DNA of 64,000 nt, taken from positions 45,895,734 through 45,959,733 of the forward strand of contig NC_081368.1 in assembly GCF_030684315.1 (NCBI RefSeq). Direction: 5' to 3'. Every line of letters starts with the position of its first letter. The stretch's first letter is position 1. Under the pieces are notes generated by a model, which made no database searches, was not told the origin of the DNA, and was given only the letters and a program-made list of their open reading frames with translations. Source of the DNA: Stegostoma tigrinum (taxonomy: Eukaryota). Shown piece after piece: positions 4,954-38,110 of the stretch. The translations under genes were made by a program, and so were the position numbers.

Positions 4954-5039
4954 TTAGTCAAGCTTGTTCTTCACTTGTTCAAAAATCTGCATGACTCTTA
5001 CTGTTGGGACGCATCCTTCTCTTAGAATGGTGATTCCTT
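4954..5039 (-). CDS. Last coding exon (GITILREGCVPTVRVMQIFEQVKNKLD*)
   Basis: Acceptor tttctttag; ILREG motif; TAA stop at 4956-4954. Confidence 0.85.
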
Positions 5040-8000
5040 CTAAAGAAAGTAAATATATTTTGTTAGAAACAGATTAATCATTGCCAAACCCACAACAATT
5101 ACCACTGAAGTGACCTTTAAGAAGCATTAATTGCAGACTTATTGAAAACTCCACACTACAACTAAGAACACTTTTAGAAACTGGGTCATGTGTAAAGATT
5201 GCTGCTGGGTTTAAGCTAGTTATTCGTAAAATCAGTTCACAATTGCATTTCTGTGATGGGCCTCAGAATTGTCAAGTTAAGTTAAATCTGGCTGACTGGC
5301 AGAAGTACTGACCTGTTCCTAGTAACAATACAATATTAATTGTGTCATATGCTAGGAGAGAAAATTGCTTAGCGCTAGATGTGACAACTATATGTGCAGC
5401 TGATCCAACTGTAATCCCATTTCATATTTCAACTACCATTGTTAACATATCAAAACTAAAGTGTGATTTAAATGAATTATACATACATATATAAGACTTA
5501 GTGTGTAAACTATTGTGGATGTTTTTGGATACAAGCAGTTTAATCAGCAGGCAAAGCAATTTATAACTAAAAATCTGTGATACCTTCATCAATCTTAGTA
5601 CAGTTGATGACAGTGGAAGCAACCAGTTCATTGGAGTCTCCGTCACATAAAACGGCATTAATTTTGTGCCCCAGGCGTCTATTGATAAAATGATAACATG
5701 AAACATTGAAAAATGCATTTATTGTGAGGTAAAACAACAAATAATTCCATGCCAATATTTGAATACGTACGAGATAACCATGTCATGATGGATGCTATCA
5801 GGCTCCCCACTTGGGTTGGCTGACGTAATCGCAAGTGGCCCAGTCATATTCACGAGATGTGCTGTCACAGTATGGTCAGGAACACGGATCATGATGCTGT
5901 CCTTGGTTCCAACATGGTCATATGCAGCACCAATGCCTTTAAAAAAGGATACCATCTGATTTTTCAGAATCTATTCTCATTTCTATTATTATTGATGAAC
6001 TGATAATAAACCAATTATTTGAAAAAGGATGAACAGATACTTCAAAGTGCTCTACTAATTGTGATACATACCTAGTTTCTTCAGCCATTCTCCTTTCTTC
6101 ACAATGCAGCTCATCCCTCCAGGGTAGACATGGTTCATAAACTCCCAGAGCAAGGGGCTGAATGGAGGATGCACTGCAGAAAGCTGATCGAGATTGGAGA
6201 TGCAGATACAAATAGGCTTCTCAGCAGGACGCTCCTGGAAAGCCATGGACACCAATTATATGCATTACAAGATTGATAAAGTGCACTTTGAGGAAAGATT
6301 ATATTATGGACTAAAAATAAAATGCTTTAAGAATCATGTCTAAATATAGAGTGTTTATGCCTCATTGCATTTTGCACACTTACCTTTATGTTGTAGATTC
6401 CTTCAATAGCTTTTGGGTGTTTACAGGAAGCTGCCAGAGCATACACGGTATCTGTTGGGATGCCACACACATGGCCAGAATCTAGAATTTTTGCAATAGT
6501 CCGTAGGCCACTAGTTTTCTGTGAAGAAGCAATGGAACAAGGCAAAGGGACTTGATCTTCCTTTTTGTTTGCTCCTACCTGTGATTTATGTATAAAAATA
6601 TAAATCGTGTCAGAAACATAATCCATTTTAATTGATACATTATAATGCAAATGACCCTGTTGTTCTTCGATATTGTTTGTATTTAAATAAAAGAGTAGAA
6701 CCTCCTTACATTATCCTTTGTAAATAAAATAAGAATGCAAGTTGATGGACTGTTAGAAAGTTATGTCAATTTGAAAGACATCTGAAATTTTCAATATGTT
6801 CTTGAACAGTTTATTAACTGCCAAGAAAGTGAACTACATAGCTATGATTCTTGACAGTTTACTCCTTAACTTGTGGATCTTTTCTGTGGTATTGCTCATA
6901 GAAGCTTGGATGCTAGGTTATTTCTTCCTGATGGGTATTTTACTAAACAAAAATACACAAGCTGAGGACAACATTGTTTAAATGTCTTTCATCTAAGGTA
7001 ATAATATGACTACTGTAGCTAGGTCAATGTAAGATTAATTGCTACTTTATGACAGGTTTGTAAAGTTGTAGATGCTTGGAAATGTTCAACTTCATGTAAG
7101 GATAACAAATGCATTAAATGGTGATTATAAAATGATTTTCATAGATTGCTGTCTAATATCAGAAGTAAAGTGGATTCTATTAAAACCTATAAAGACACAT
7201 TCATATAATAACATTATATTTGCATTCTTTCTTCATTAGGCCTCATATTACAAAAACATTATTTATTTTTCAAAATAAGTTTGTAATATTGGTCTAGCAA
7301 GTTTTACCACAATAAAGGAAGAGAGCAACTAAATGCTTACAAAATGCCTGCATGTTTAAGGTAATAAAAAATGCCTTCTACCCTCTTGCACATTCAGTCC
7401 GTATATCTTATTATAAATTCCCACTTCTATATTTATAATAGAAATGAGCTGTAATCATGCCTTCTGTGTATGACGCCCAAGAAGTTCTCAGTTCCTCAGC
7501 TCATTTTGCACAGCAACTCTTAAGTTCTAATCAGCATATCTGTCTTGTTTTGATGTAAACAAGAATGCAAAATAAAAGTTTAAAAGAATAGAATATATGA
7601 CTTTAAAGCAGGGATCGGATTACCTGCACTGAACCACTTATCTCCAGCCCTATAATTTCATTTGAGTGGAAGACCAATGCAGTAGATTGACAAATAATTT
7701 ACATTCAAAGTAAAAAGCCATCATATAGCAGTTACCTTCAAAAGGGAGTCACCCAGAGGAATGAGTTGTTTTCCAAACATGTGGTTGGCAAAAGAAGCCG
7801 TTTGTCCATAAACACAGACAAAACTGATTAAAGCCAGCATCACACCTGAAGGAATAACAATGAGAAAATCATAAGTGTTCATACGGCTATAAAATAAACA
7901 CTTTTAAAATTAAGATAACTTGAACAAATGTTTAACCTTCCAAAGGAAGAGGCAGGCGTTCCAGTGTGAATAGTAGAAAGCAGATGATTATCACTTCCAT

Positions 8001-11000
8001 AATGACTGTGACTATGAGAAGCACCACATTTACATAAAGAGCTGGGAAAGAGATCAAAAAAAACAAACTTATTCCTCATGGGCATCAAGCATTGAAGTAC
8101 ACTAACTGAAAAGGATTATGATTTAAAACACTCACCCAAGATAACCAGAAACATGTTGACAATAAGGAAAGCTATGGCTCCTGCAGTGAATCCACCATCA
8201 GAACTGGGATCAATGTTTAATAAATGACCTGCATAAAACACATATCTTTGAAACTCCTGAGATAACAAAGTGTAAGAGCTGGATGAACACAGCAGACCAA
8301 GCAGCATCGGAGGAGTAGGAAGGCTGACGTTTCGTGCCTAGATCATTCTCCAGCATCTGCAGTTCCTACTCTCTTTGAAACATCGTACAGGCAGAAGTGA
8401 ATATAAACATGTGATAGTATGGGAAAGTTGAGCAAGAAATGATCCATAGAAATTCCTTGTCTACTGAGAATTAAGAGTTAACTTGCTCTGAGAGATTCTT
8501 TGAAATTTTAATACATATTTAACTACTTCCTTCATTTCAACAGTTATTATTCTAAACTAAAATGGCCCAATGGCATGTTTTTAATGAGAAGAAATGTAAG
8601 CAATATTTTTAAGCATTCATAAAACAGTTCCAGGATAATGAAGGATTGGTCTTTCAAGATGGTTGTGTCGCGTAATTATATGAATTGTATCACGATACAA
8701 AATTACTTCACTTCTTCTACATGAAATCTGAACATAAAGTCAGAGATCCAGGGATTGGCACACAGGGAACAATGACATAATGTGAATATTTTGTCCATAC
8801 CTTTCTTCATGTGCTTCCTTATATAACACAGCTAAAATAAAAGATAACAAGATGTAGAGCTGAATGAACACAGGAGGCCAAGCAACATCAGAAGAGCAGG
8901 AAAGCTGATGTTTTGGGTGTAGACCCTTCTTCAGAAATTCAGATTTCTGAAGAAGGGTCCAGATCCGAAATGCCAGCCTTCCTGCTTCTCTGATGCTGCT
9001 TGACCTGCTGTGTTCATCCCGCTCTACACCTTGTTATCTCAGGTTCTCCAGCATCTGCAGTTCCTGCTATCTCCAAAAAAAACCTGCTCATCTATCTGAA
9101 CAATATACAGCAATATATTTTATGGTTGTGCGGCATTGTATTACTTCTGTGGTATGAAATGCTAGAAATGTCATGCAGAAATAAATAATTGTAAATTATG
9201 GGAAACAACTAATTCCTCTGGGTGACTCCCTTTTTAAGGTAACTGCTATATGTTGGCTTTTTACTTCAAGTGTTGATTATTTTACAATCTACTGCATTGG
9301 TCTTCCATTCAAATGAAATTATAGGGCTAGAGATAAATGGTTCAGTGCAGGTAATCAGATCCCTGCTTTAAAGTCACATATTCTGTTCTTTTAAACTTTT
9401 ATTTACAATTACACATGTAAATGTAAGCATCAAGTGAGGGGGAAGGTGTCATTCTCGTTGTCATTCCCTTGAACAGAAATATTTCAGTAAAAATGATCAT
9501 TTCCTACTAGGCAGATTGACAATATAATGGATGACTCTCCATGTTACAAAAAATAAACTGAAATTGTAAATATAAAACTTGAAAAAGAATGCAACTTTTA
9601 GAAAAACAATAAAAATGTATTTATTTGTTCATATTTCAAAATATACCTGCAAATCGAAGCCAGGTCCAAGTTGCCCAGACAGCTGCATAGCAGAAGGGTA
9701 ACACAGAGCCAAAGCGTCTTCCTCCACGAACTTGAATCCTGGACACATAGAGTTGGATCAGAGTTCCAGGGATCAGAACCCAAGGAATACTAAGATGAGC
9801 CTGGGCTTGGTCCATGTTTGCACTCTGGATGGCAGACAGGGCTGCAAGCCCATTGCAAATATAGAAGAGGGCATCTGGCAGCTGCACATTAGTAAAAACT
9901 GGGAGCTCATTAGCTTTGCTGATCCTCTGTTTTAGGGCAAATAGAACTCTCTGGAATGATTTGGAAGACACCATTTCGGTTCCAATAGGAATTAGTGCCT
10001 TTTCTGCTATAGAGTTGATCAGGCTGGCAAATGTTGCATAAAGGGACAGGGCCGTATACATAGAGCAAACTGCCCCAAAAAATCTGTAATATGATACAGT
10101 GTTAATCTGAGGAATAGTGGAGATAGTTAAAAGAACAAAAAACCCATTATGGATTATTTCAAGTTTGTTTCTGTTCAGAGACATTAGACATAAAATCAAA
10201 GCTGTGACCAAAAAAAACCAGTCTCCTGTCATTCTAGCTCTGCTGCTATCTAAATTGTTGGCATTTATGAGGACGGTTAAAATAAATTCCTCCCAGGACT
10301 TCACAAGCCAATACATACTATGGACACAATATTTAGTCGCAAAGTAGACATCATTACGTAAATATCCATAGTAGCTTGCATAAAGCTGTGCAATGGAATT
10401 GATGCTGACCCATACAGCTCCTACATAAAATGATTTAATGTACCTGAAACAGTAGAAAGCAAAGATAAAGGGAGAAATCACACTACACAAATTTCCAAGA
10501 GCCATTGGCTCTGCATATTTTGTGTTCTTCTTTTTCTCGTCATCATTAGCCTTAGAAGATGATTTATTGGCTGTTCCTAGAAGCAGCACATTGAATAATG
10601 CATTGCCAAACCCTGGAAGAATGTACCTCTGGGTGACTCCCTTTAAAAGCAGGGCAATGGCTCCATACAGCCCGAAGACAACAATCACTAGTTCAAATAT
10701 TCCTGATAGTATGAAAGCCCATTGGCTAAAGAGACCCACAGCCTCAAAAATGAGCGTAAGTGTTATGGCCCCAAAGACAAAAGGCATGATGTAATTAGTC
10801 GTAGCTGAACAGAATGATAGAGTAAATGCAACACTGATGTAAGCTACTAGCCCTGCCACAGCTGATTCACTAATAGGAGGCAAAGACACACTTGAACTAT
10901 CATTTGCAACACTGGTGTTTTTTAGATCCAGAATGTTTGAGGTGACATTAAGAGGGGAGTTTGCTCCCAGAATAATCCGAGTTGCCCCAAAGCTGCTCCA

Positions 11001-11975
11001 CAAAGCTGAAAATGTTATAAAGGCTGTGCCACCCAGATGGTCGTACTTTCTGAAGGACATTAGTCCGGCAACAAGTTGTGTCACTCCACCAATCAAAATA
11101 AGGTGAACACCTAGAAAAAAATGGAATTTTTAGTAGCACTGGCTTCTTTGATTAATTACTTAGGATATCAAATAGAGAGGCTTTAAACTTATTTCACCAT
11201 TGACCACCATAAACTTCAAAAATGTCGAAAAACAATATCTTCATTAGTGTCTTGAGCTAATGAGACCTTTTAAAAATGATCATTCAAAATCTTAGAACTG
11301 GTTAATACTGCAGTTTAGGTTTGTTTGTAAATACTTTCTTTTAACATCCCTGTGTTTCAGTATAACTTGGATTCTGACTGACTTCAAAGGGCAGCAGTGT
11401 GCCAACTCTTACCGGACGTGTCAAAGTGCTGGGATTTGAAAGTACATAGAGCTTTTCAAGTTAAGAAATGAATGCAGGAGTTTATACTTTATAAGTATGA
11501 TATGTAAAAATTAGTTGTGTCAAAGCAGGCCGAAGAAACATTGGAACAAGATTGAAGCTACTTTCTCCAGAAGTCAACAATGGGCTAAGAATTGTACATG
11601 TTTTTGCCCTATTTACAAAATGTAATATTTCGTGTCAGTTATGAAGTCTTACCATCATAAACCATTTTCCTGAGTAATAGTTGTTACAAAACATCTCAGA
11701 ATTTTTTGCATAATTCATGTTTAGTGGCTTTTGTGTTCCATGCAAAATCAGATGATATTTCATGTTGTGTAAGGTGATTACTAATCACAGCTGCAATAAG
11801 CTGCTATTTGTAACTAACCTGCCAAGATGTTTTCAGTTCCATTGGCCAAAATATTTGTATTGACTTGGGCAAAATTTTGAAGAGCTACAAGGAAGGCACT
11901 GATCACATTGGCCAAAAGCCCCAGGACTCCTGGCTCACTGTAAAATACAGCAGGAAAGCCTTCTGCACTAGACAT
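4954..11975 (-). CDS. Multi-exon gene: 3x GPR1/FUN34/YaaH (SatP/AceTr)-like carboxylate channel fused to a C-terminal YrdC/TsaC-like domain, ~877 aa
   Basis: Coding exons 11975-11819, 11110-9647, 8228-8136, 8041-7937, 7845-7736, 6578-6384, 6234-6072, 5936-5771, 5678-5584, 5039-4954. All introns are GT-AG with compatible phases (1,1,1,1,0,0,1,2,1); total 2634 nt with no internal stop. SatP-like motifs: YSEPGVLGL, GGVTQLVAGLMSFRKYDHLGGTAFITFSALW, LIPLG. YrdC motifs: PTDTVYAL, KERP..KP, IRVPDH, TSANPSG, STV, ILREG. Confidence 0.85.
5584..5678 (-). CDS. YrdC-like domain exon 4 (RLGHKINAVLCDGDSNELVASTVINC)
   Basis: Acceptor ttttatcaatag, donor G|GTATCA, phase 2-1; D.G...ST motif. Confidence 0.85.
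5771..5936 (-). CDS. YrdC-like domain exon 3 (IMIRVPDH...AITSANPSG)
   Basis: Acceptor ccttttttaaag, donor TC|GTACGT; S-x-N motif. Confidence 0.9.
6072..6234 (-). CDS. YrdC-like domain exon 2 (ERPAEKPICIC...YPGGMSCIV)
   Basis: Acceptor gctttccag, donor G|GTATGT; completes the K-x-R motif across the junction. Confidence 0.9.
6384..6578 (-). CDS. YrdC-like domain exon 1 (GIPTDTVYALAAS...IYNIK)
   Basis: Acceptor aatcacag, donor AAG|GTAAGT, phase 0-0; PT(D/E)TVY motif. Confidence 0.9.
7736..7845 (-). CDS. Exon, end of third AceTr-like unit (VMLALISFVCVYGQTASFANHMFGKQLIPLGDSLLK)
   Basis: Acceptor ttccttcag, donor AAG|GTAACT, phase 1-0; resembles the SatP C-terminal G..LPIG motif. Confidence 0.85.
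7937..8041 (-). CDS. Exon, third AceTr-like unit (ALYVNVVLLIVTVIMEVIIICFLLFTLERLPLPLE)
   Basis: Acceptor ctctttcccag, donor G|GTTAAA, 105 nt, phase 1-1; hydrophobic helix. Confidence 0.85.
8136..8228 (-). CDS. Exon, third AceTr-like unit (HLLNIDPSSDGGFTAGAIAFLIVNMFLVIL)
   Basis: Acceptor ttttatgcag, donor G|GTGAGT, 93 nt, phase 1-1. Confidence 0.85.
8255..8371. mobile_element. Intronic PLE terminal fragment
   Basis: PLE terminus; direct repeat TCTTTGAAAC (8245-8254, 8372-8381). Confidence 0.7.
8841..9075. mobile_element. Head-to-head palindromic pair of PLE termini (CTGAAGA variant)
   Basis: Inverted termini centred near 8938. Confidence 0.75.
9201..9404 (+). repeat. Inverted local duplicate of ~7570-7775 (exon end, donor site and intron)
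   Basis: Aligns by eye to the reverse complement of 7570-7775 with scattered substitutions. Confidence 0.9.
9647..11110 (-). CDS. Large 1464-nt exon encoding most of the three SatP/AceTr-like membrane units
   Basis: Matches ORF 9636..11096; acceptor ttttttctag, donor GCAG|GTATAT; many hydrophobic helices. Confidence 0.92.
11819..11975 (-). CDS. First coding exon of SatP-YrdC gene (MSSAEGFPAVFYSEPGVLGLLANVISAF...ENILA)
   Basis: Acceptor ttcattctag ends at 11987, ATG at 11975, donor G|GTTAGT. Contains an AceTr N-terminal (N/E)PxxLGL-like motif. Absent from the ORF track. Confidence 0.85.
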
Positions 11976-22390: not shown

Positions 22391-23599
22391 TTTTACAGTT
22401 CTTGTGCTCCTTCAGAATAATTTTTTGTCAACTTCCAGGCATCAAAAGCAATATATGCTAGTGTATTGAATAAAAATGGAGAAGACATGTCTAGAGAATC
22501 TCATTATAGTATATGCATTAAACTTGCAACTTGTCACGGTGTGTGATGTATGTCATCTGCCAACATAATAATCATGCAGAAAAGCAAGCGTCAAACTACT
22601 GGGGAAGCCTATTAAACATTGTGGCATGCTTGAACTCCACCAACCTCTCCCTTCTACCAGAATTAAGTCAGGACAGAAAATCCCAAAGTTCGGCTTTTTA
22701 CCGTGCCACCAGTTGAGACCCTCAAATAGGCACATAAATAGTCCAGTTGGTAGGCCTGTTGATACGTGGTGTGCATAAAAGGTTGACCTGGTCAGACTGC
22801 TTGTCGGCTCCTTGTTCAAAAGGCACATGCCTGATCAAAGGATGCAACATCAGAAAGTGGGTCCACTGAGGCCATCCTTCCTGCCACTGAACTACCTACA
22901 CCTGGTGATCTATACCATTTGCCAGGCCTCTTCTTAAGGATGCTCAGTGCACCTGAGGCATGTGGGGAAGCTGAACTTGAAGTGGACAAAATGTATCTAT
23001 TTGGTGTTGCCCTTCTCCATATCTATAAAGGACAACTATCCCTTTTACCACAAATGTTTGCACGAGTGCCCTTGAGACAAACATTAGTCACAGTATTTGA
23101 TATATGGTCTCTGCCAGAAACTAACAAAGAGACAATAGTTGCTTCCTATAGCTTTCTTGACCAAGAAAATAAAAATATGAGATCAAGCAAACAAGGACAG
23201 TTTTTTTTGCTACTGCTAAGAAAAGATGTGATGTCGTGATAAATGATTGGCCAGGACTGGATTTATGGCTGGAAAGGGTTGTTGGGACAGCAAGGTTTGG
23301 TGAGGGGTGTTAAGGTGAGGTAGTTGGTACAATGAATTCCTTCTCAGGATTCACTCATCCAATCCCTTTCCTTATCAGACCATTGCTGCCACCATCTGAA
23401 CCTGGATGGTATTACCTTTAGGACGTCACCAAACAGTGATCAGGACTCTGAGTAAGCACAAAAGAAGCCTTTTTTCTGTTTCTCAGTGACACGATTATTT
23501 TCTCTGAAAGACTTTGGTTTTAGTTCAATCAAACTAGCAAACTGAGTTATGTTAATGTTAAGCAAAGGAACTTCTTATTGACATGTTGCATGGAGGAAC

Positions 23600-25179: not shown

Positions 25180-25345
25180 CATGGAAAGTCCAATCCTTAG
25201 TTATGCAAATCTTTGATAATAAAATTTGACAAGGAGGCGGTGGGGTTTGGGGGTGGAGGGGTATGCTGACGAGTGACGTGCGCTTTCGGCTTACTCGCAA
25301 CACCAAAATGCTATATAAATGCCCAAGTCAAGAGAGCAGAATTAG
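25180..25345 (+). promoter_or_regulatory. ACOD1-like promoter
   Basis: TATATAAA 25312-25319; kB-like GGAAAGTCC 25183-25191; overlapping C/EBP-like TTATGCAA and octamer ATGCAAAT 25201-25210; CRE/HRE-like TGACGTG 25274-25280; CpG-enriched through ~26850. Confidence 0.65.
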
Positions 25346-25414: not shown

Positions 25415-25606
25415 ATGTTCTCCAAACTTCTGGTAGCTATTGCGTTAATGTTGAAACAAAAAAATCTTTGATCTATGATTGCAAGCTTTTGTTATTTTAA
25501 ATATATTATTTATTTGCTAACATTGATTCATTCTGCTTCCGTCTTTAGAAATTTCAGCTCAGCTTAACAACTGGAAAACGCCTGCACCATAAAATTTCTC
25601 GCGAAG
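25415..25606 (+). CDS. ACOD1: ACOD1-like exons 1-2 (25415-25432, 25549-25606): MFSKLL/KFQLSLTTGKRLHHKISRE
   Basis: ATG ~100 nt after TATA; donors GTAGCT (weak) and GTAAAT; acceptor gtctttag; phases join exon 3. Basic, nearly acid-free peptide. Confidence 0.65.
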
Positions 25607-28600
25607 GTAAATATACTTGGCTTCTGTCTGAAAAAGAACTGAAATGGTTATTCGTTGTCTGTCCGTGTGTACCTCCATTCCGCAGCCTGGTGTGCAGTAC
25701 CACAAGCTGCGCTAAAGAGGAGAGGCGCACTGCATCGTAGTGTACCTGAGTTGTTTGCTTCAACTCAAAAGTCTAAGAAACTTGAGATAGAGTCCATTCA
25801 AATATACAATAATAGCACTAACGGTTCAACCAAACGTATTCATTGCAGCGCGGCACAAGTTGCTGCTCGTTATTGGGTCAATTTCAACACAGATCTCGGA
25901 CTGTGTCATGAAAGCGAAGATCCGAAAGACTTTGTTTCCTTTCAACTTCAGCACTTGAGAGCGCTCGTGGGAGCGGGGATATTTCTCATTGCAAAGTCAG
26001 CTTTGTTTTCTGACAGTTCCATAGAACGCGTTCCGGTGGGAACTACAACGGTTTGACTCGGACGGTTCAGTGCTTTAAACAAATGAAATCGTCATATGTG
26101 TAATTATGTAACTATTTTTTTTACCCCTCTTGTTAGCTTTCGAGGCGCCGGATTTGAAAAAGACGGTGACGAGCAGTTTTGGCTCATTTATCTCGGGAGT
26201 TGAAGTTGATCATCTCTCGGAGACGGTTTTACAGAGGAGCAAACGCATGATCCTAGACAACATTGGAGTCGGAATCCTGGGCAGCACCAGCCCGGTGTTT
26301 GATATTTGCCTAAATTACTGCCAGGTAACTTACACACAACCTCACAGTCACGGGCGCGCTAGGCGCCGCTCCACATCCTATTCCGATTCCATCATTAATA
26401 CCTGGGCCAGATTCCGTCAAGCAGCGAAAGTGCCGCTTGAAACTAAACTAGTAGCTACCTCAATGCTGGCCACTGCAAGCTGCTTCCCAATGTTTGCAGG
26501 TTAGCTCTAAGCGGACTGCGAGCTGTGACAGCAATGCGACCCACGTTACGACAGCCTCCCTTTTATTTCAAGTGAATTTGGTGGGATGCTCAGGCACAGA
26601 GACTGACAGCTCCAATGTCCACATCCGACGATTACTCATCAGGAGACACACAACCCGCTTTCTGTACTGATGGGAGTCACTGTTTGAGCTGCTTTCCCTT
26701 ACAGTGCGGTCCTTTATTCTCTAACCCGCTCCCCTTGCTTCCTTCCAACAGCAAATGTACGCTCAAGACCCAGTCAGCTCAGTCTACGGACGCAAAGGAT
26801 TAAGACTTTCGCCGACTCTGGCCGCTTTCGCCAATGGAGTCGCGGTAAGATGTTTGCACCTAATGACTTTCTGGGTTTCACAAACTAGTCAATAAACAGA
26901 AAGAATGTTCATGATGAAACCTGAGCCTGCCACTTATTGGTGTTTCCATAGCTTTAATTTATGTTGTCTCATCTTCACCCCTTAGGCACATTCAATGGAT
27001 TTTGATGATACTTGGCACCCTGCCACCCACCCGTCTGGAGCTGTACTTCCCGCCCTCCTTGCTGCTGCCCAGATGTTACCTACAAACTCCAAACCCACTG
27101 GACTCGACTTCCTCTTGGCTTTTAATGTGGGCATTGAAGTTCAGGGCAGGTTAATGCACTTCTCGCAAGAGGCGAACAACATCCCCAAGAGGTGAGACAC
27201 TGGTACAAAACTCCAAACATTAATGCGGAAGCCAGATTTTGCAGCGGGCGTTGAACTCATGGCGCTTTGCTGTTGGTCAGCCTTAAACTTGCCAGCATTC
27301 ATTCACGGGGTTCTGCATTAGAGGAAATTATCATTAGACAGAAAGGTACCACCTACAGGGGTGTGAATAGTGCAAGAAATTTTACATTACAGTTTCTTCA
27401 TCAACCAAATTTAAAACTTCCACCTGGAATAAGAAAAGTATAAACCAGGAAGTGTAGATGAAAACATTTAATGGTGTGCAAAATTATTTACAGAGCATAA
27501 AAATAAAAATCGTGAACGTCAGGTCTGATTAAGAGGGAAATAAGCATTTCATAAAAGTTTTTGAAAAGTAATTAATATTTGAAGAAATTAGATTCTTCAC
27601 TACAAAAGTTTTTTTTTAGGGCCAGAGAATTTATTTCATAGTAATTAAGGTTTATTCCATTGACTAAAATCATTTAATCAATAAAATAATTTAAATAGAC
27701 ATGACCTAACTTTTTCTCATGTGTTTAATGGGTAACGAGCGGTCATTGCTACACTTCCAGAACATCATGTGCTTGAATGTGAGACTCTGAAAAATATACT
27801 GAGCAACAAAATTCATGGGTATACATAGCAATTTGGATCAGTTCAGTGTCTCACAAAGGAATGGCTCGAAGTTGCTATCCGATTTGCTTATTAATAGTAA
27901 CGTTGCTATTTATTACACAAATTCAGGTAATATAGTTGCATGTAACATTTTAGAAAAAAACAGTACTTTTTTGCAATTAATTGAAAGCATTATGTAAATA
28001 ACTACTCAGTGACAGTCAAGCCATTTGAAAGCAAAGGATCTGATTAATAAAAGAGCAATTATGGATCTGCTAATTGCAATAACACTGTTAATTCTGTTTA
28101 ACTGAAGTGTAATTGTGTAAAATAATGAATAAACAAAAGGGTCAGGTGCTTGAATTTTTTTTTTAATTTGACAGATTTCACCCTCCCAGTGTGGTTGGGA
28201 CAATGGGCAGTGCTGCAGCCATAGCCAAATTCCTTTCACTTAATGACAATCAATGTGTTCATGCCCTAGCTATTGCAGCTTCACTCTCAGGGGCACCAAT
28301 GGCCAATGCAGCCACTCAGGCAAAACCCATCCATATTGGCAATGCCACACGGCTGGGCTTTGAGGCAGCTCTCCTTGCTTCTAAAGGAATGGAAGGAAAT
28401 GTGAAAATTCTCGACAAGACACTTGGCTGCTTTGGATTTTCTGCTTTTTATGGTGACTACGAACCTCAGAAAATTGCTCCACTTGAACAGACACGATTTC
28501 TACTTGAGGACCAAGATATTGCATTTAAGCGCTTCCCTGCTCATCTAGGTATGCACTGGATAGTAGATGCTGCTGTCTCAGTTAGGCAGTTGGCAACTGC

Positions 28601-29093
28601 TAATGATGGTGCTTTTTCACCCTCTATGATTGACAGAATAATTCTGCATGTCCCTGTTTCCCGTTACATCAACAGGCCATTCCCAGAAACAGAACATGAG
28701 GCTCGCCATTCCTTCCAGTTTAATGCCTGCTCTGCATTGTTGGATGGTGAAGTGAACATTGAATCATTCAGTGAAACTAAACTGCAACGAGATAGTCTCA
28801 ATGATTTACTTAAAAAAGTGGAGCTTCAACATCCTGAAGATAATGTGGCCAGTTTTGAGAAGATGTATGGAGAAGTAGTTCTCCTCCTGAGGAATAGAGA
28901 TGTGCTCAGGGGAAGATGTGACACCTTCTATGGACACTGGAGAAACCCACTGTCTAGAGAATCACTACTCGACAAATTCAGAAGTAATGCTTCCTATGTA
29001 TTGGAGCAAAACAAAATAGAAGCTATTATCAACACAGTTGAGAACCTTGAAGAAGTGAGGAATAGTTCCACGTTAGCCTCTTATTTGCAGTGA
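25415..29093 (+). CDS. ACOD1: Cis-aconitate decarboxylase (ACOD1/IRG1-like, probably an irg1l-type paralogue), ~493 aa, MmgE/PrpD family
   Basis: Exons 25415-25432, 25549-25606, 26137-26324, 26752-26844, 26986-27191, 28175-29093; GT-AG, phases 0,1,0,0,2; 1482 nt. Motifs: KRMILDNIGVG, AHSMDFDDTWHPATHPSGAVLP, RFHPP, ATQAKPIHIGNA, FKRFPAHLG, RYINRPFP, EARHSFQF, FYGHWRNPL. Confidence 0.95.
26137..26324 (+). CDS. ACOD1: ACOD1-like exon 3
   Basis: TVTSSFGSFI...RSKRMILDNIGVGILGS; acceptor cttgttag, donor CAG|GTAACT. Confidence 0.92.
26752..26844 (+). CDS. ACOD1: ACOD1-like exon 4
   Basis: QMYAQDPVSSVYGRKGLRLSPTLAAFANGVA; acceptor ccttccaacag, donor GCG|GTAAGA. Confidence 0.92.
26986..27191 (+). 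CDS. ACOD1: ACOD1-like exon 5 (catalytic His region)
   Basis: AHSMDFDDTWHPATHPSG...NNIPKR; acceptor ccccttag, donor AG|GTGAGA. Confidence 0.95.
28175..29093 (+). CDS. ACOD1: ACOD1-like last exon
   Basis: ORF 28191..29093 extended to acceptor aatttgacag; FHPPSVVG to TGA stop. Confidence 0.95.
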
Positions 29094-33088: not shown

Positions 33089-33404
33089 NNNNNNNNNNNN
33101 NNNNNNNNNNNNNNNNNNNNNNNNNNNNNNNNNNNNNNNNNNNNNNNNNNNNNNNNNNNNNNNNNNNNNNNNNNNNNNNNNNNNNNNNNNNNNNNNNNNN
33201 NNNNNNNNNNNNNNNNNNNNNNNNNNNNNNNNNNNNNNNNNNNNNNNNNNNNNNNNNNNNNNNNNNNNNNNNNNNNNNNNNNNNNNNNNNNNNNNNNNNN
33301 NNNNNNNNNNNNNNNNNNNNNNNNNNNNNNNNNNNNNNNNNNNNNNNNNNNNNNNNNNNNNNNNNNNNNNNNNNNNNNNNNNNNNNNNNNNNNNNNNNNN
33401 NNNN
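33089..33404. other. Assembly gap (316 N)
   Basis: Run of N inside the putative LTR. Confidence 1.
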
Positions 33405-34975: not shown

Positions 34976-36523
34976 CTTAGATATGTAATAGTCCCAGAAA
35001 GCTTATTGGCAATATAAATGTTGAAATGTTACAATGTCAATACCAAGCTCAAGGTTTCTTTCTCAATTGCGGAATATTTATTTTGATGATTATTCAATTT
35101 TCTGGAAAAATACCCAACAGGTTTTTCTATCTTCTCATCATCTTCTTGCAAGAGTACAGCACTGACACCCACATCACTTACATTGATAGCCATCTTGAAT
35201 GGCTATATGCAATTAGATGTGGCTATCACTGGGGCAGTGGTTTGTCTCTCCACTGAAATTTTCTGCACTTCTTCAAAAGTCTGTAATTGAGCAACCGCAT
35301 GGTTAAAATTTGGTATGAACTTCTGATAAAAACCACTCAGTCCCAGGAGTCTTAGCACTTCCCTTTTCATTGATGGTATGGGAAACTCCCCAGTAACTTT
35401 TGTTCGCACATCCCTCGGAGCCATCTGTCAATGTTTGATAAATTGGCCCAGGAAGGTGACTTGGGCTTTTTGCAAACTCACTTTTAGCTAGGTTTATCAC
35501 CAAGTCCGCCTCCTGATGTTTATTGAACAATCCTGATACGTGCACCAAATGTTCCTTCTATGTGTTATGGAAGATCATCGATATAAGCCACAAAGTTGGA
35601 TAATTCAAAATGACTTCACTGGTTTGCCTTTGAAATGCGGCTGGCACTTTTTCTTACCAAATGGCATGGCTTTAAATTGGTACAGTCTACTCTGCACCAT
35701 GAAAGCCAAAATTTCCTTCGCTCTTTCAGATAAACATATTTGCCAGTATCCTATAAATATGCCCAACTTTGAAATATAAGTTGCTTGTCCCACCTTGTTA
35801 ACACAGTCTTGCATACATGGAATATGATATGACTTAGATTTTGTAACTGCATTGGCTTTGTGATGGTCCACATATAATCCACACAAAACCATCTGCTTTT
35901 GACACCATTACTATGGGTGAGCTCCAGTCGCTGCAATTCACTTCAATTATATTGTCTTTGAGCATGCACTCAATCGCTTTTTGAATCTGTACCAACTTTA
36001 GAGGGTTAAGTCATCAAATGCTTTGCTACTTTCATGTACTGTCTAGCCAATTCACCTGTTCTATTTAATTATTCCCTAAAATTTGACATATAGTCCAAAT
36101 GTCTGGTCTCTGAACTCACCGATTTCTCCTTAATCAATTTCAATGGTCATCTTACCTCATGCCCAAAATCTATTTCAAATTGACAGAATTTAGTGGATAT
36201 ATTTGGTGCATCCCTACGGTATAAAGTATAATGAAATTCCATTATCCAAATCCTCTGGATAGTCTTGACTATATGCTTTCAGCATAGTCTTTAAAGTTTG
36301 ATGTCACCATTCTAATGCTCCTTGTAGTTCTGGATGGTACTCAGTAGTTTTGAATTGTTCTATTCCTAGCCTGTCCATAACATCCTTGAATAACTTTGAC
36401 ATAAAATCTGACCTTTGATCTGATTGTATCTCTGTGGGTAGGCCATGTCTAGTGAAAAATGACAGTAATTCTTCTACAATGCTTTTAACCAAGATGCTGC
36501 ATAATGGAATAGCCCCTGGAAAT

Positions 36524-36692
36524 GAACACGGCAGGCCAAGCAGCATCAGAGGAACAGAAAGGCTGATGTTTCGGGCCTAGACCCTTCTTCAGGAATGGAA
36601 GGCTTTTCCGAAGAAGGGTCTAGGCCCAAAATGTCAGCCTTGCTGCTCCTCTGATGCTGCTTGGCCTGCTGTGTTCATCCGGCTCTGCACCT
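36524..36692. mobile_element. Head-to-head PLE termini inserted in the Gypsy integrase
   Basis: Inverted PLE ends centred near 36600. Confidence 0.75.
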
Positions 36693-38110
36693 AATACTGA
36701 CTCCCACATTTTTTTTAGGTAGCAGTCCTTTGCAATCAATTAAAACTCGTTGAAAGGTTCCTCAAATGCAGGAATGAGTAGTAAAGGTGCTGGTTTTTAT
36801 CACTGCATGAGGTTTTCTATTTAGCTGACACATATGACATGTGAAGCAAACTTCAATCACATGCATATACAATCCAGGCCAATAAAAATGTTTTTTGTAT
36901 AATTGCTTGAGTTTTCCTTACTCCCAAATGACTTCCAACTGTATATTCATATGCTACCCACAATACCTCCTTTCCAGAGCCCATCAGTAATACAACTCCA
37001 TGAACTTCTGCCCATTTCTCATCTGCCTGAATATGTGATGGTCTCTATTTCCCCATCAAGACATCATTTTTAAGGTTGTAACATTCTGGGTAAAACTCTT
37101 TTTTTCGATATAACTGCTTTAGTTTTTCATCTTTCCATTGTAATTCAGCTAAATTTTCTGTACTAAATATAGTCACTTCTCCCTCCACCTGTTCTTGTGT
37201 TATTCTCAACCATTTGATCAAACATAGTATCTGATTATTGAACTTCAACTTCCTTATCTTTATTCCTTGGTTTCTCCTTCTGTTTCCACCTGCAGCCACG
37301 TAGTTGGGAAAAATCCCAGGATATGCTTCCTGTAACACCTCAGTTGCCTGATTATCCACTGGCTTTTCAATATGCATCACTCCCACCCGTACATTCTTTG
37401 GCAGCTTTTTAGCTTCAAACGTTTTGTTTTCCTTTACCACTTCAACAAAGCTCACTGGCTTACCCTGTTTTCCCAAATCCGCCTTCACGGTGCTTTTTCT
37501 AAACCATCAACACTGTGACTTCATGTAGCCTTCTTAATTACAATGATAACAGCTGAGGTTTATAGCTTCTCTTTCACCCTCATGAGTTTCCTTTCTACCC
37601 TGTGGTAAACTATCTTACCGTCTTCAATGAGATCTTCTCTTCCCTTGCCACCTGAGGATTTTTCTTTTCCCCAATTCCTATCCCTCACAGTTTGAAATTA
37701 ATGTTGGAAACCAAATTTTGATTTATGAACCAACTCACAATCATCTGCCATTTCTGTTGCTCTCTGCTTTTCCCCATGAGTAATACTTTAAAGAAGTTTA
37801 CTAAATTCATGAAGCATTATTTTCTGTTTGCAAAACCATGTTGCCTCTGCCTGATTGTAGTTTAATTTTGGAATTGTCCTCTTATTATTTCCTTATAATG
37901 GGATTGTAGTATTTTTACGATGACAATTGTTAGACAAACTGGCCTATAGTTTCTAACCTGCTGCTTTATTGTTTTCTTGAATAAAGTGAAACATTTGCAA
38001 AATACAATTATTTGAGAGCCATAGGGATTAAGGCTGAATCTCCAACTATTTACAATCTATTTTAATATTTTCAGGGAAGTATTGGCTGTATTGCGGACAA
38101 ATCTATTTGT

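Follow-up and report, generated by a model that had tools for sequence, protein, structure and literature searches.

A triple-AceTr–YrdC fusion gene beside IRG1L in Stegostoma tigrinum, a candidate component of a proposed animal itaconate cluster

The window analyzed here is a 64,000-nucleotide stretch of the Stegostoma tigrinum genome (NCBI RefSeq GCF_030684315.1, contig NC_081368.1, positions 45,895,734 to 45,959,733 of the forward strand; plain coordinates below count from its first nucleotide). Its minus strand carries, from 11975 to 4954, a gene that almost certainly encodes one fused protein, in which three membrane repeats of the AceTr/SatP family precede a YrdC domain. The gene lies head-to-head with IRG1L, a cis-aconitate decarboxylase-like gene, at 13,440 nt from ATG to ATG, and is probably tied in function to the IRG1L pathway. 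We favor, tentatively and at somewhat less than even weight, the reading that the fusion is a make-and-export unit of an itaconate defense pathway, in which a substrate adenylated by the YrdC domain would cyclize to a five-membered ring, to be exported through AceTr repeat 1. The initial annotation of this gene, made from sequence alone, had offered either a transport-coupled enzyme or a gated channel; the former is the reading favored here and the latter is a live rival.

Gene structure and evidence for a single fused protein

The fusion gene comprises ten coding exons with 877 codons and a single final stop, and its nine introns are all GT-AG with matching phases across each. Exon 1 (11975-11819; residues 1-52) holds the start codon and transmembrane helix 1 (TM1) of repeat 1, in which an invariant Asn23 takes the place of the SatP Phe17 gate. 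The splice acceptor immediately 5' of the ATG implies an exon for the 5' untranslated region, which was not located in the interval between the fusion and IRG1L. Exon 2 (11110-9647; residues 53-540) encodes the remainder of repeat 1, the whole of repeat 2, and the first half of repeat 3, and is followed by exon 3 (8228-8136), exon 4 (8041-7937), and exon 5 (7845-7736), the last membrane exon, which ends in phase 0. Intron 5 (7735-6579) connects the channel and YrdC parts and is closed in all frames, with 23-32 stops per frame. Exon 6 (6578-6384) encodes a basic linker and the start of the YrdC domain with Thr687, Ala690, and Lys708; further pocket residues fall in exon 7 (6234-6072; Arg710, Lys714, Cys719), exon 8 (5936-5771; Arg780, Ser801/Asn803, Ser805/Gly806), exon 9 (5678-5584; Ser839/Thr840), and exon 10 (5039-4954; Arg856 and the stop), where the acceptor is tandem and 5039 agrees with the orthologue. 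Taken one by one, the exons are 81-94% identical to an 877-residue protein of Chiloscyllium punctatum (P0001). The Pfam model PF01300 (YrdC) passes its cut-off in two exons, 6 and 8, and falls short of it in exon 7, and PF01184 (AceTr) reaches E 8.6e-4 and 19.4 bits in exon 2 (cut-off 25), so that a profile comparison of the shark exons supports the YrdC half of the initial annotation and leaves the AceTr half under threshold.

That annotation had placed the in-frame junction across a 1157-nt GT-AG intron in phase 0 on both sides. Its coordinates hold throughout, and the exon 5/6 junction of the ten-exon frame is in register in all 15 orthologues displayed. Its remark that the YrdC part has no obvious separate start must be qualified: in-frame ATGs occur at 6626, within intron 5 and 48 nt before the exon-6 acceptor, and at 7780 in exon 5, the start used in a 252-residue sawfish annotation. 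A YrdC-only isoform beside the fusion is therefore possible. These ATGs, three AATAAA/ATTAAA words in intron 5, short YrdC-only and membrane-only annotations, and zebrafish Ensembl models that separate si:ch211-153b23.3 from a YrdC-like.4 with a different fold change would also suit two adjacent genes that were misjoined or are joined by rare read-through, with a mainly soluble YrdC protein made from its own start. We find this scarcely credible, however, given three lines of evidence. Logan contigs of 2,856-3,491 nt from skate-like and frog-like clusters hold complete, intron-free frames for proteins of 867-880 residues and, set against the 7.0-kb gene here, are most simply spliced mRNAs, an RNA origin that we infer from their size. 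AceTr-YrdC fusions also occur as single open reading frames of 1104, 1056, and 872 codons in algal-like metagenome contigs (L042:256-3567, L043:123-3290, and L052:769-3384). Finally, a search for long proteins returned 201 matches of at least 854 residues, a length filter that favors fused forms; YrdC motifs are present in 119 of the 120 listed, from sharks to platypus, and the sole exception is an unrelated chimeric frog model. Orthologues of this length are fused rather than split, and shorter partial models also exist; the zebrafish orthologue is si:ch211-153b23.3.

Fused relatives also occur in amphioxus, scallop, and oyster, whereas the fusion matches listed include neither a therian nor an arthropod by name. 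The initial annotation knew of no AceTr member in mammals, but monotremes carry the gene (platypus P0030, echidna P0326). The vertebrate fusions form two clades, the second with five alignment rows (lungfish, Polypterus, Amia, Huso, and Aldrovandia). By our guess at their taxon, the algal-like contigs are diatom-like (GC 40%) or haptophyte-like (GC 62%); an algal-like copy is predicted to fold like the animal protein (SatP Z 17.4).

Three AceTr repeats and a predicted polar pore

The membrane part consists of 18 helices in three AceTr/SatP repeats. The initial annotation thus named the right family, as profile and fold matches indicate, and miscounted its units by describing a single channel. 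Repeat 1 (11942-10620; residues 12-216) runs across intron 1 and bears N-glycosylation sequons in its outer TM3-4 loop, repeat 2 (10511-9993; residues 253-425) has polar Asp/Ser-His-Asn pore positions, and repeat 3 (9881-7769; residues 463-632) is spread over exons 2-5. Structure prediction, proposed earlier as a check, agrees with both halves of the fusion: in the AlphaFold 2 model of P0001 (139 sequences; predicted local distance difference test score, pLDDT, 83.7), 18 helices are followed by a YrdC domain. Repeat 1 superposes on SatP (5ys3; VIA Z 20.1, root-mean-square deviation 2.8, 180 residues aligned), repeat 3 on UreI (3ux4; Z 14.2), and the YrdC domain on Sua5 (Z 27.5), and repeat 2 matches SatP (5zug) by profile at E 2e-10. 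The repeats align with one another in hhalign at probabilities of 92-97% (96% for repeat 2 against repeat 1), and single-domain AceTr proteins match all three repeat profiles. Five of eight vertebrate orthologues pass the curated PF01184 cut-off (21-44 bits), and NF038013 scores 29.5 against a cut-off of 50. The NPAPLGL signature takes the variant form E-P-x-x-L-G in repeats 1 and 2 and is degenerate in repeat 3. A complex prediction for repeat 3 with repeat 1 scored 0.19 against a mark of 0.34.

Repeat 1 is likely the working pore. Its conservation is the highest (0.80-0.81 versus 0.72), and Asn23, Gln64, Arg73, His77, and Trp90 are kept from animals to the algal-like copies, with Arg73 and His77 invariant. 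SatP numbering was transferred from the offsets in PMC8379382 and from two single-domain AceTr proteins. The Phe17 gate position is Asn in 124/124 rows of repeat 1 and 125/125 of repeat 3, and Asp in 106/126 of repeat 2, where this shark has Ser. With His at the Tyr site of repeat 2, the hydrophobic Phe-Leu-Tyr constriction of SatP is not kept; Gln50 persists in all three repeats (120-127 of 125-127 rows). The other SatP residue labels used for the repeats are presumptive. The exchange of the Phe gate for Asn suggests a pore that is wider and more polar. At the same site, the F98A substitution opens yeast Ato1 to succinate, and export of acids, lactate included, is documented for AceTr members (PMC8379382). 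Passage of itaconate or a derivative through the pore is a prediction that we hold at even weight.

Sequons are present in the outer loop of repeat 1 in 119 of 121 rows, at 7.1 per 100 residues compared with 0.1-1.2 in the linkers, and the linkers are 14-16% Lys/Arg. Together these features predict an N-in topology with a cytosolic YrdC domain in a membrane of the secretory pathway, which would be the plasma or phagosomal membrane.

Conserved catalytic site of the YrdC domain

The KxR...SxN ATP tetrad is kept (Lys708 in 133/134 rows, Arg710 in 133/133, Ser801 and Asn803 in 130/130). Among the Pyrococcus abyssi Sua5 ligands named in PMC6004061, Thr35, Arg58, Arg121, Ser143, Ser147, and Ser181 are invariant in 130-133 rows, and Lys56 is present in 133/134. 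Four of the five threonine ligands (Thr35, 133/133; Arg121, 130/130; Ser181, 130/130; Arg195, 126/131) are conserved, with the tetrad, at 96-100%. The fifth, His67, is replaced by Cys (100 rows), Phe (20, amniotes), Trp (6, algal-like), or Thr (5), and the PTxTxYG glycine (Gly38) by Ala (120), Cys (7), or Thr (5). The pocket shows three signatures, Ala/Cys/Ser among anamniotes, Ala/Phe/Gly for 20 rows from amniotes, and Thr/Thr/Gly for the second paralogue clade, and these may mark substrate shifts.

The fusion is not the shark's orthologue for N6-threonylcarbamoyladenosine (t6A) synthesis: as the initial annotation supposed in calling it a paralogue, a canonical YRDC gene exists, on contig C28, which likewise has Cys at the His67 site and retains the Gly. 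No second YrdC paralogue was found within 264 kb around the window. Two other identities were considered and rejected. YciO lacks Lys50/Arg52 (PMC2685093), and the fusion's YrdC domain keeps the Lys and Arg and so is not YciO. A Sua5/TsaC2, HypF, or TobZ type does not fit a chain that stops 2 residues past the last YrdC helix, with no SUA5 or Kae1-like domain.

The site is close enough to that of canonical enzymes that ordinary synthesis of threonylcarbamoyl-AMP (TC-AMP) must be weighed. In such an account, near a suggestion made in PMC13316224, the pore imports bicarbonate or a small acid and the YrdC domain supplies diffusible TC-AMP to KEOPS, raising t6A in inflammation. The domain passes TIGR00057 (130.9; cut-off 123.2) with its tetrad intact, PMC6004061 describes TC-AMP as diffusible, the Km of mitochondrial YRDC for bicarbonate is high, at 13 mM (cited in PMC7430679), and algal-like copies outside any IRG1L cluster would be accommodated. 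Nevertheless, the canonical YRDC suffices in therians, none of which is among the fusion matches listed, the Gly-to-Ala/Cys change in PTxTxYG is clade-wide, and more than 500 million years of IRG1L linkage, together with co-induction, would go unexplained; we regard this account as distinctly improbable.

A ligand-gated carboxylate channel is another alternative, in which the YrdC domain senses ATP, an amino acid, and bicarbonate and gates a pore for itaconate or short acids, with turnover incidental. The fusion is very old, the linker between repeats 1 and 2 is as conserved as the pore (0.82), and the cluster lacks a carbamoyl-acceptor enzyme. The C-terminal extension of the algal-like copies ranks with GAF domains, a signaling trait, in Atlas (0.92-0.94), but this assignment is weak, with no Pfam match, low pLDDT, and an unconfirmed fold. 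Gating also leaves unexplained why every catalytic-site ligand is under near-total constraint and why this clade has retained copies that lack the channel. Stand-alone YrdC copies nest with frog and mollusc fusions in a YrdC tree, which omits the five second-clade rows for want of the anchor motif and carries long-branch warnings. They include eight Xenopus laevis records of 230-318 residues on a fusion-bearing contig, either genes or isoforms (among P0180, P0191, and P0328-P0336), and Littorina has a double-YrdC protein of the same clade. Multiplication of channel-less copies in frogs and snails favors catalysis over sensing; we infer that the YrdC domain acts by catalysis and consider gating unlikely.

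A gene cluster around IRG1L

The main clue to function, absent from the initial annotation, is the gene cluster in which the fusion lies. IRG1L (25415-29093, plus strand; MmgE/PrpD family) has six exons and encodes an intact 492-residue protein; the genome yielded no other PF03972 locus. Three further genes lie with IRG1L and the fusion inside 215 kb of contig C18: GLOD5, left of the fusion (45.831-45.841 Mb; L013:2041-5311 and L014:5500-6520; minus strand), with a short N-terminal leader; a PhyH-type dioxygenase orthologous to zebrafish zgc:174917 (45.815-45.819 Mb; L015:1800-3300 and L016:9265-10000; minus strand); and an ElbB/GATD3-like gene (45.710-45.715 Mb; L036:4096-9059; plus strand), encoding an intact 225-residue protein with no N-terminal leader. 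An EXOC1/Sec3-like gene (L019:6529-8004 to L023:5910-6314; minus strand) bounds the cluster right of IRG1L. Genome-wide family searches missed the AceTr (PF01184), GATD3-like (PF01965), GLOD5 (PF00903), and dioxygenase (PF05721) genes, because the exons are small and not because the genes are absent.

The dioxygenase is of the 2-oxoglutarate (2OG)-Fe(II) type, with HQD in 115 of 120 family members. The top NCBIfam match of the family, far under its cut-off, is a SyrB2-like chlorinating enzyme (E 8e-19), and HQD is retained. The gene is single-copy and broken in this shark, with a frameshift at the iron motif, an in-frame stop, and a second frameshift, and is intact in Chiloscyllium and other sharks.

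The association extends well beyond this genome. Neighborhoods of named orthologues were derived from contig sizes, locus tags, and one preprint (10.1101/2022.06.17.496652). The fusion and the dioxygenase lie on equal-sized contigs in 20 of the 23 species found in both match lists, with near-adjacent locus tags in four. The preprint describes vicinal oxygen chelate (VOC), YrdC, 2OG-Fe(II), and GAT domains flanking IRG1L and paleo-IRG1 from oyster to vertebrates, reports that zebrafish IRG1L makes itaconate, and gives the range of IRG1L as molluscs, amphioxus, and non-therian vertebrates, which is also the taxonomic range of the matches found here. Searches turned up no bacterial ancestor for the cluster as a whole: the one GTDB dioxygenase locus has unrelated neighbors, and plasmid PrpD matches reach 28-32%.

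Published expression data link the genes further. In Shigella-infected zebrafish, si:ch211-153b23.3 has a log2 fold change of 6.04 (rank 4 of ~23,500 rows; PMC6980646, supplement 8), followed by irg1l (5.81, rank 6) and zgc:174917 (5.68, rank 8), with.4 at 4.05 and.5 at 3.08; canonical yrdc does not change significantly (0.27). A second study places irg1l,.3, and.5 as hubs of one module (PMC11140123).

GLOD5 adds a biochemical clue. Its three core exons are 56, 64, and 54% identical to a 126-residue VOC protein encoded in a Pseudomonas aeruginosa operon of the order dehydratase-VOC-PrpD-CoA-transferase-lyase-TRAP, the layout of PA0878-0886, and Salmonella STM3117 follows human GLOD5 among its PDB matches. 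According to PMC9875883, the Pseudomonas VOC protein (Rdo) is a lactonase of 2-hydroxyparaconate, an antimicrobial compound derived from itaconate, against which it gives protection; it shares 59.7% identity with Rdo1, encoded in the itaconate cluster of Ustilago. A Ralstonia relative of GLOD5 (L094:3472-7258) adjoins RraA/HMG-CHA aldolases and an aminotransferase, possibly a route for a branched hydroxy-dicarboxylate.

The same neighbors could instead form a carbonyl- and acid-stress module, in which GATD3-like and GLOD5 glyoxalases serve activated phagocytes, the channel exports D-lactate or acetate, the YrdC domain traps Ser/Thr carbamates, and itaconate is merely co-regulated. The ElbB-type glyoxalase match over all four exons of the GATD3-like gene and the VOC fold agree with such a module, as do lactate export by AceTr members (PMC8379382) and reported induction by toxicants besides infection. 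However, the closest characterized GLOD5 relatives are itaconate-linked, the polar, widened gate suggests larger acids, and the role assigned to the YrdC domain is ad hoc. On balance this explanation seems quite unlikely.

Proposed chemistry and points that weigh against it

A YrdC domain without a transfer partner, a dicarboxylate-sized pore, and a relative of a paraconate lactonase in one cluster point to a ring-closing, exporting step. Enzymological precedent comes from TsaC, which adenylates the carbamate N-carboxy-threonine and accepts only beta-hydroxy amino acids (PMC7430679); in the absence of an acceptor such as Kae1/TsaD, TC-AMP has a half-life of 3.5 min and about half becomes 5-methyl-2-oxazolidinone-4-carboxylate (PMC6004061). 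By analogy, the YrdC domain of the fusion would adenylate a beta-hydroxy dicarboxylate-like substrate, the product would cyclize, giving a lactone or carbamate with a five-membered ring, and this acid, probably along with itaconate, would leave the cytosol through the pore of repeat 1. We rate ring-closing adenylation itself as somewhat unlikely. Two substrate options, both speculative, are Ser/Thr with CO2, which would give 2-oxazolidinone-4-carboxylate, and itatartarate or hydroxymethylsuccinate, which would give 2-hydroxyparaconate or paraconate. In our own structural comparison, N-carboxy-serine corresponds, as aza-analogue, to hydroxymethylsuccinate and itatartarate, and the oxazolidinone corresponds in like manner to the paraconate lactones. 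GLOD5 could then act as a self-protecting lactonase, and the PhyH-type dioxygenase could take the role of fungal Cyp3.

Several observations weigh against this make-and-export reading. To our knowledge, no YrdC-fold enzyme adenylates a carbon carboxylate. The anamniote pocket resembles that of canonical YRDC, with Cys at the His67 site in both and TIGR00057 passed, so that plain TC-AMP synthesis remains possible, and the amniote Phe at this site may not suit a hydroxylated substrate. SatP Glu57, essential to acetate transport (PMC8379382), is replaced by Ser, Ala, Gly, or Gln, with Asp in 26/125 rows of repeat 3; its loss, complete in the first two repeats and nearly so in the third, means that some or all of the pores may not conduct. 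Zebrafish IRG1L is located in the mitochondrial matrix, a compartment other than that predicted for the channel, and the preprint reporting this saw no obvious functional clustering and, in its Results, leaves the transporter unremarked (10.1101/2022.06.17.496652). Zebrafish glod5 is not induced by Shigella (log2 fold change 0.65, adjusted P 0.50; PMC6980646), GLOD5 survives in humans without the cluster, and only one of three bacterial GLOD5 neighborhoods inspected is an itaconate operon. The dioxygenase is not an obligate partner, being broken in this shark where the fusion is intact, and no amniote is present among the 120 listed of its 143 matches. Finally, no other cluster genes were found beside the algal-like fusions (100.5 kb, 14 loci), so the ancestral role did not need itaconate.

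A bolder extension of the make-and-export reading, which we consider rather unlikely, is that a true metabolic cluster persists in molluscs, amphioxus, and egg-laying vertebrates, in which IRG1L would make itaconate, the PhyH enzyme oxidize it, the YrdC domain close the ring at its own channel, and GLOD5 confer self-resistance. The outcome would be a lactone, either 2-hydroxyparaconate or its aza-analogue, of greater antimicrobial potency than itaconate. If so, therians would have lost all of the cluster genes but GLOD5, an orphan human enzyme would gain a substrate, and the presence of Rdo/STM3117 in bacterial itaconate operons would be explained.

Relation to known systems

The architecture itself has been published: Ghasemi et al. 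(iScience, June 2026; PMC13316224) describe, in silico and with function left open, vertebrate ATOs in which three repeats are fused to Sua5/YrdC, and propose that a dimer of triples rebuilds the SatP hexamer. The fusion is therefore not new as first stated, and the earlier remark that the architecture was not recognized as characterized is superseded. The published family agrees with ours in length (~900 residues), three six-helix repeats, C-terminal YrdC domain, and two vertebrate clades. It is differently bounded, however, given as "except mammals," whereas monotremes have the gene here, and covering fungi and animals only, whereas algal-like fusions were found here. The main text of PMC13316224 contains 0 mentions of itaconate or IRG1.

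With SatP/Ato1 (PF01184), the fusion shares the fold (Z 20.1 and 17.4), Gln50, and Trp76; the Tyr72 site is aromatic in its first and third repeats, and TM1 begins with E/N-P-x-x-L-G in its first and second. It differs in having three repeats per chain, a polar Phe17 gate, no Glu57, new invariant Arg and His residues in repeat 1, a predicted glycosylated outer loop, and a fused enzyme. With TsaC/YRDC/Sua5 (PF01300), it shares the fold (Z 27.5), the KxR/SxN tetrad, and four of five Thr ligands, whereas it is a membrane-bound paralogue beside canonical YRDC, lacks a SUA5 or Kae1 domain, has Ala, Cys, or Thr for Gly38 and Cys, Phe, Trp, or Thr at the His67 site, and, unlike yrdc, is infection-induced in zebrafish. 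HypF and TobZ/NodU offer a likeness in using a YrdC-fold module for chemistry other than t6A (Z 11-19), but the fusion has no counterpart to their Kae1-like transfer domain or to their use of carbamoyl phosphate.

The closest parallel at the level of the cluster is fungal. The Ustilago maydis itaconate cluster comprises tad1, adi1, cyp3, rdo1, itp1, mtt1, and ria1 (PMC4720413), including an oxygenase and an exporter (PMC4720413, PMC11626831). Part by part, the likeness would cover a decarboxylase, a putative oxygenase, an Rdo-family VOC protein, a candidate plasma-membrane exporter, and co-expression of some members; in zebrafish, the fusion, irg1l, the dioxygenase,.4, and.5 are induced together, without glod5. 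Through the kinship of GLOD5 with the VOC family that hydrolyzes 2-hydroxyparaconate, the animal cluster appears to mirror that of Ustilago, and by analogy it would fill the same four job slots, with the YrdC and GATD3-like functions in addition. Only the VOC protein is homologous to its Ustilago counterpart; in the cadA cluster of Aspergillus terreus, the PrpD-fold decarboxylase is homologous too. In contrast to the fungal clusters, the animal cluster has a 2OG-Fe(II) oxygenase in place of a P450 and an AceTr transporter, of predicted substrate, in place of one from the major facilitator superfamily, and spreads its genes over 215 kb; its products are predicted. The P. aeruginosa PA0878-0886 (Rdo/PA0880) and Salmonella STM3117 clusters share the GLOD5/Rdo VOC protein (54-64% identity), but such bacterial itaconate operons are catabolic and defensive on the bacterial side, and the operon inspected has no YrdC or AceTr gene.

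Among the papers listed by our literature searches (25 of 31 in one broad search, none with GLOD5), the main text of PMC13316224, and the Results of the IRG1 preprint, we found no link between the triple-AceTr-YrdC protein, the IRG1L neighborhood, and the lactonase kinship of GLOD5, and as far as these searches show, the cluster-level reading is new. Joining the three observations suggests that animals have a counterpart to the fungal itaconate cluster, that the fusion is a candidate for itaconate export from the phagocytes of non-therians, and that a YrdC enzyme may carry out chemistry unrelated to tRNA. It also points to a substrate test for human GLOD5.

Other features of the window

Between the fusion and IRG1L lies a 134-codon open frame (22835-23236, plus strand) with no Pfam match. 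The putative IRG1L promoter (25180-25320) contains TATA, C/EBP-like, CRE-like, and near-consensus kappaB words; they lack a chance control and carry no weight in the argument above. Beyond IRG1L, a degraded long terminal repeat-type retroelement (35032-37506, minus strand) retains integrase, reverse transcriptase, and RNase H fragments. Elsewhere the window holds Penelope/GIY-YIG-like and long interspersed element fragments, shark short interspersed elements, and an N run at 33089-33404.

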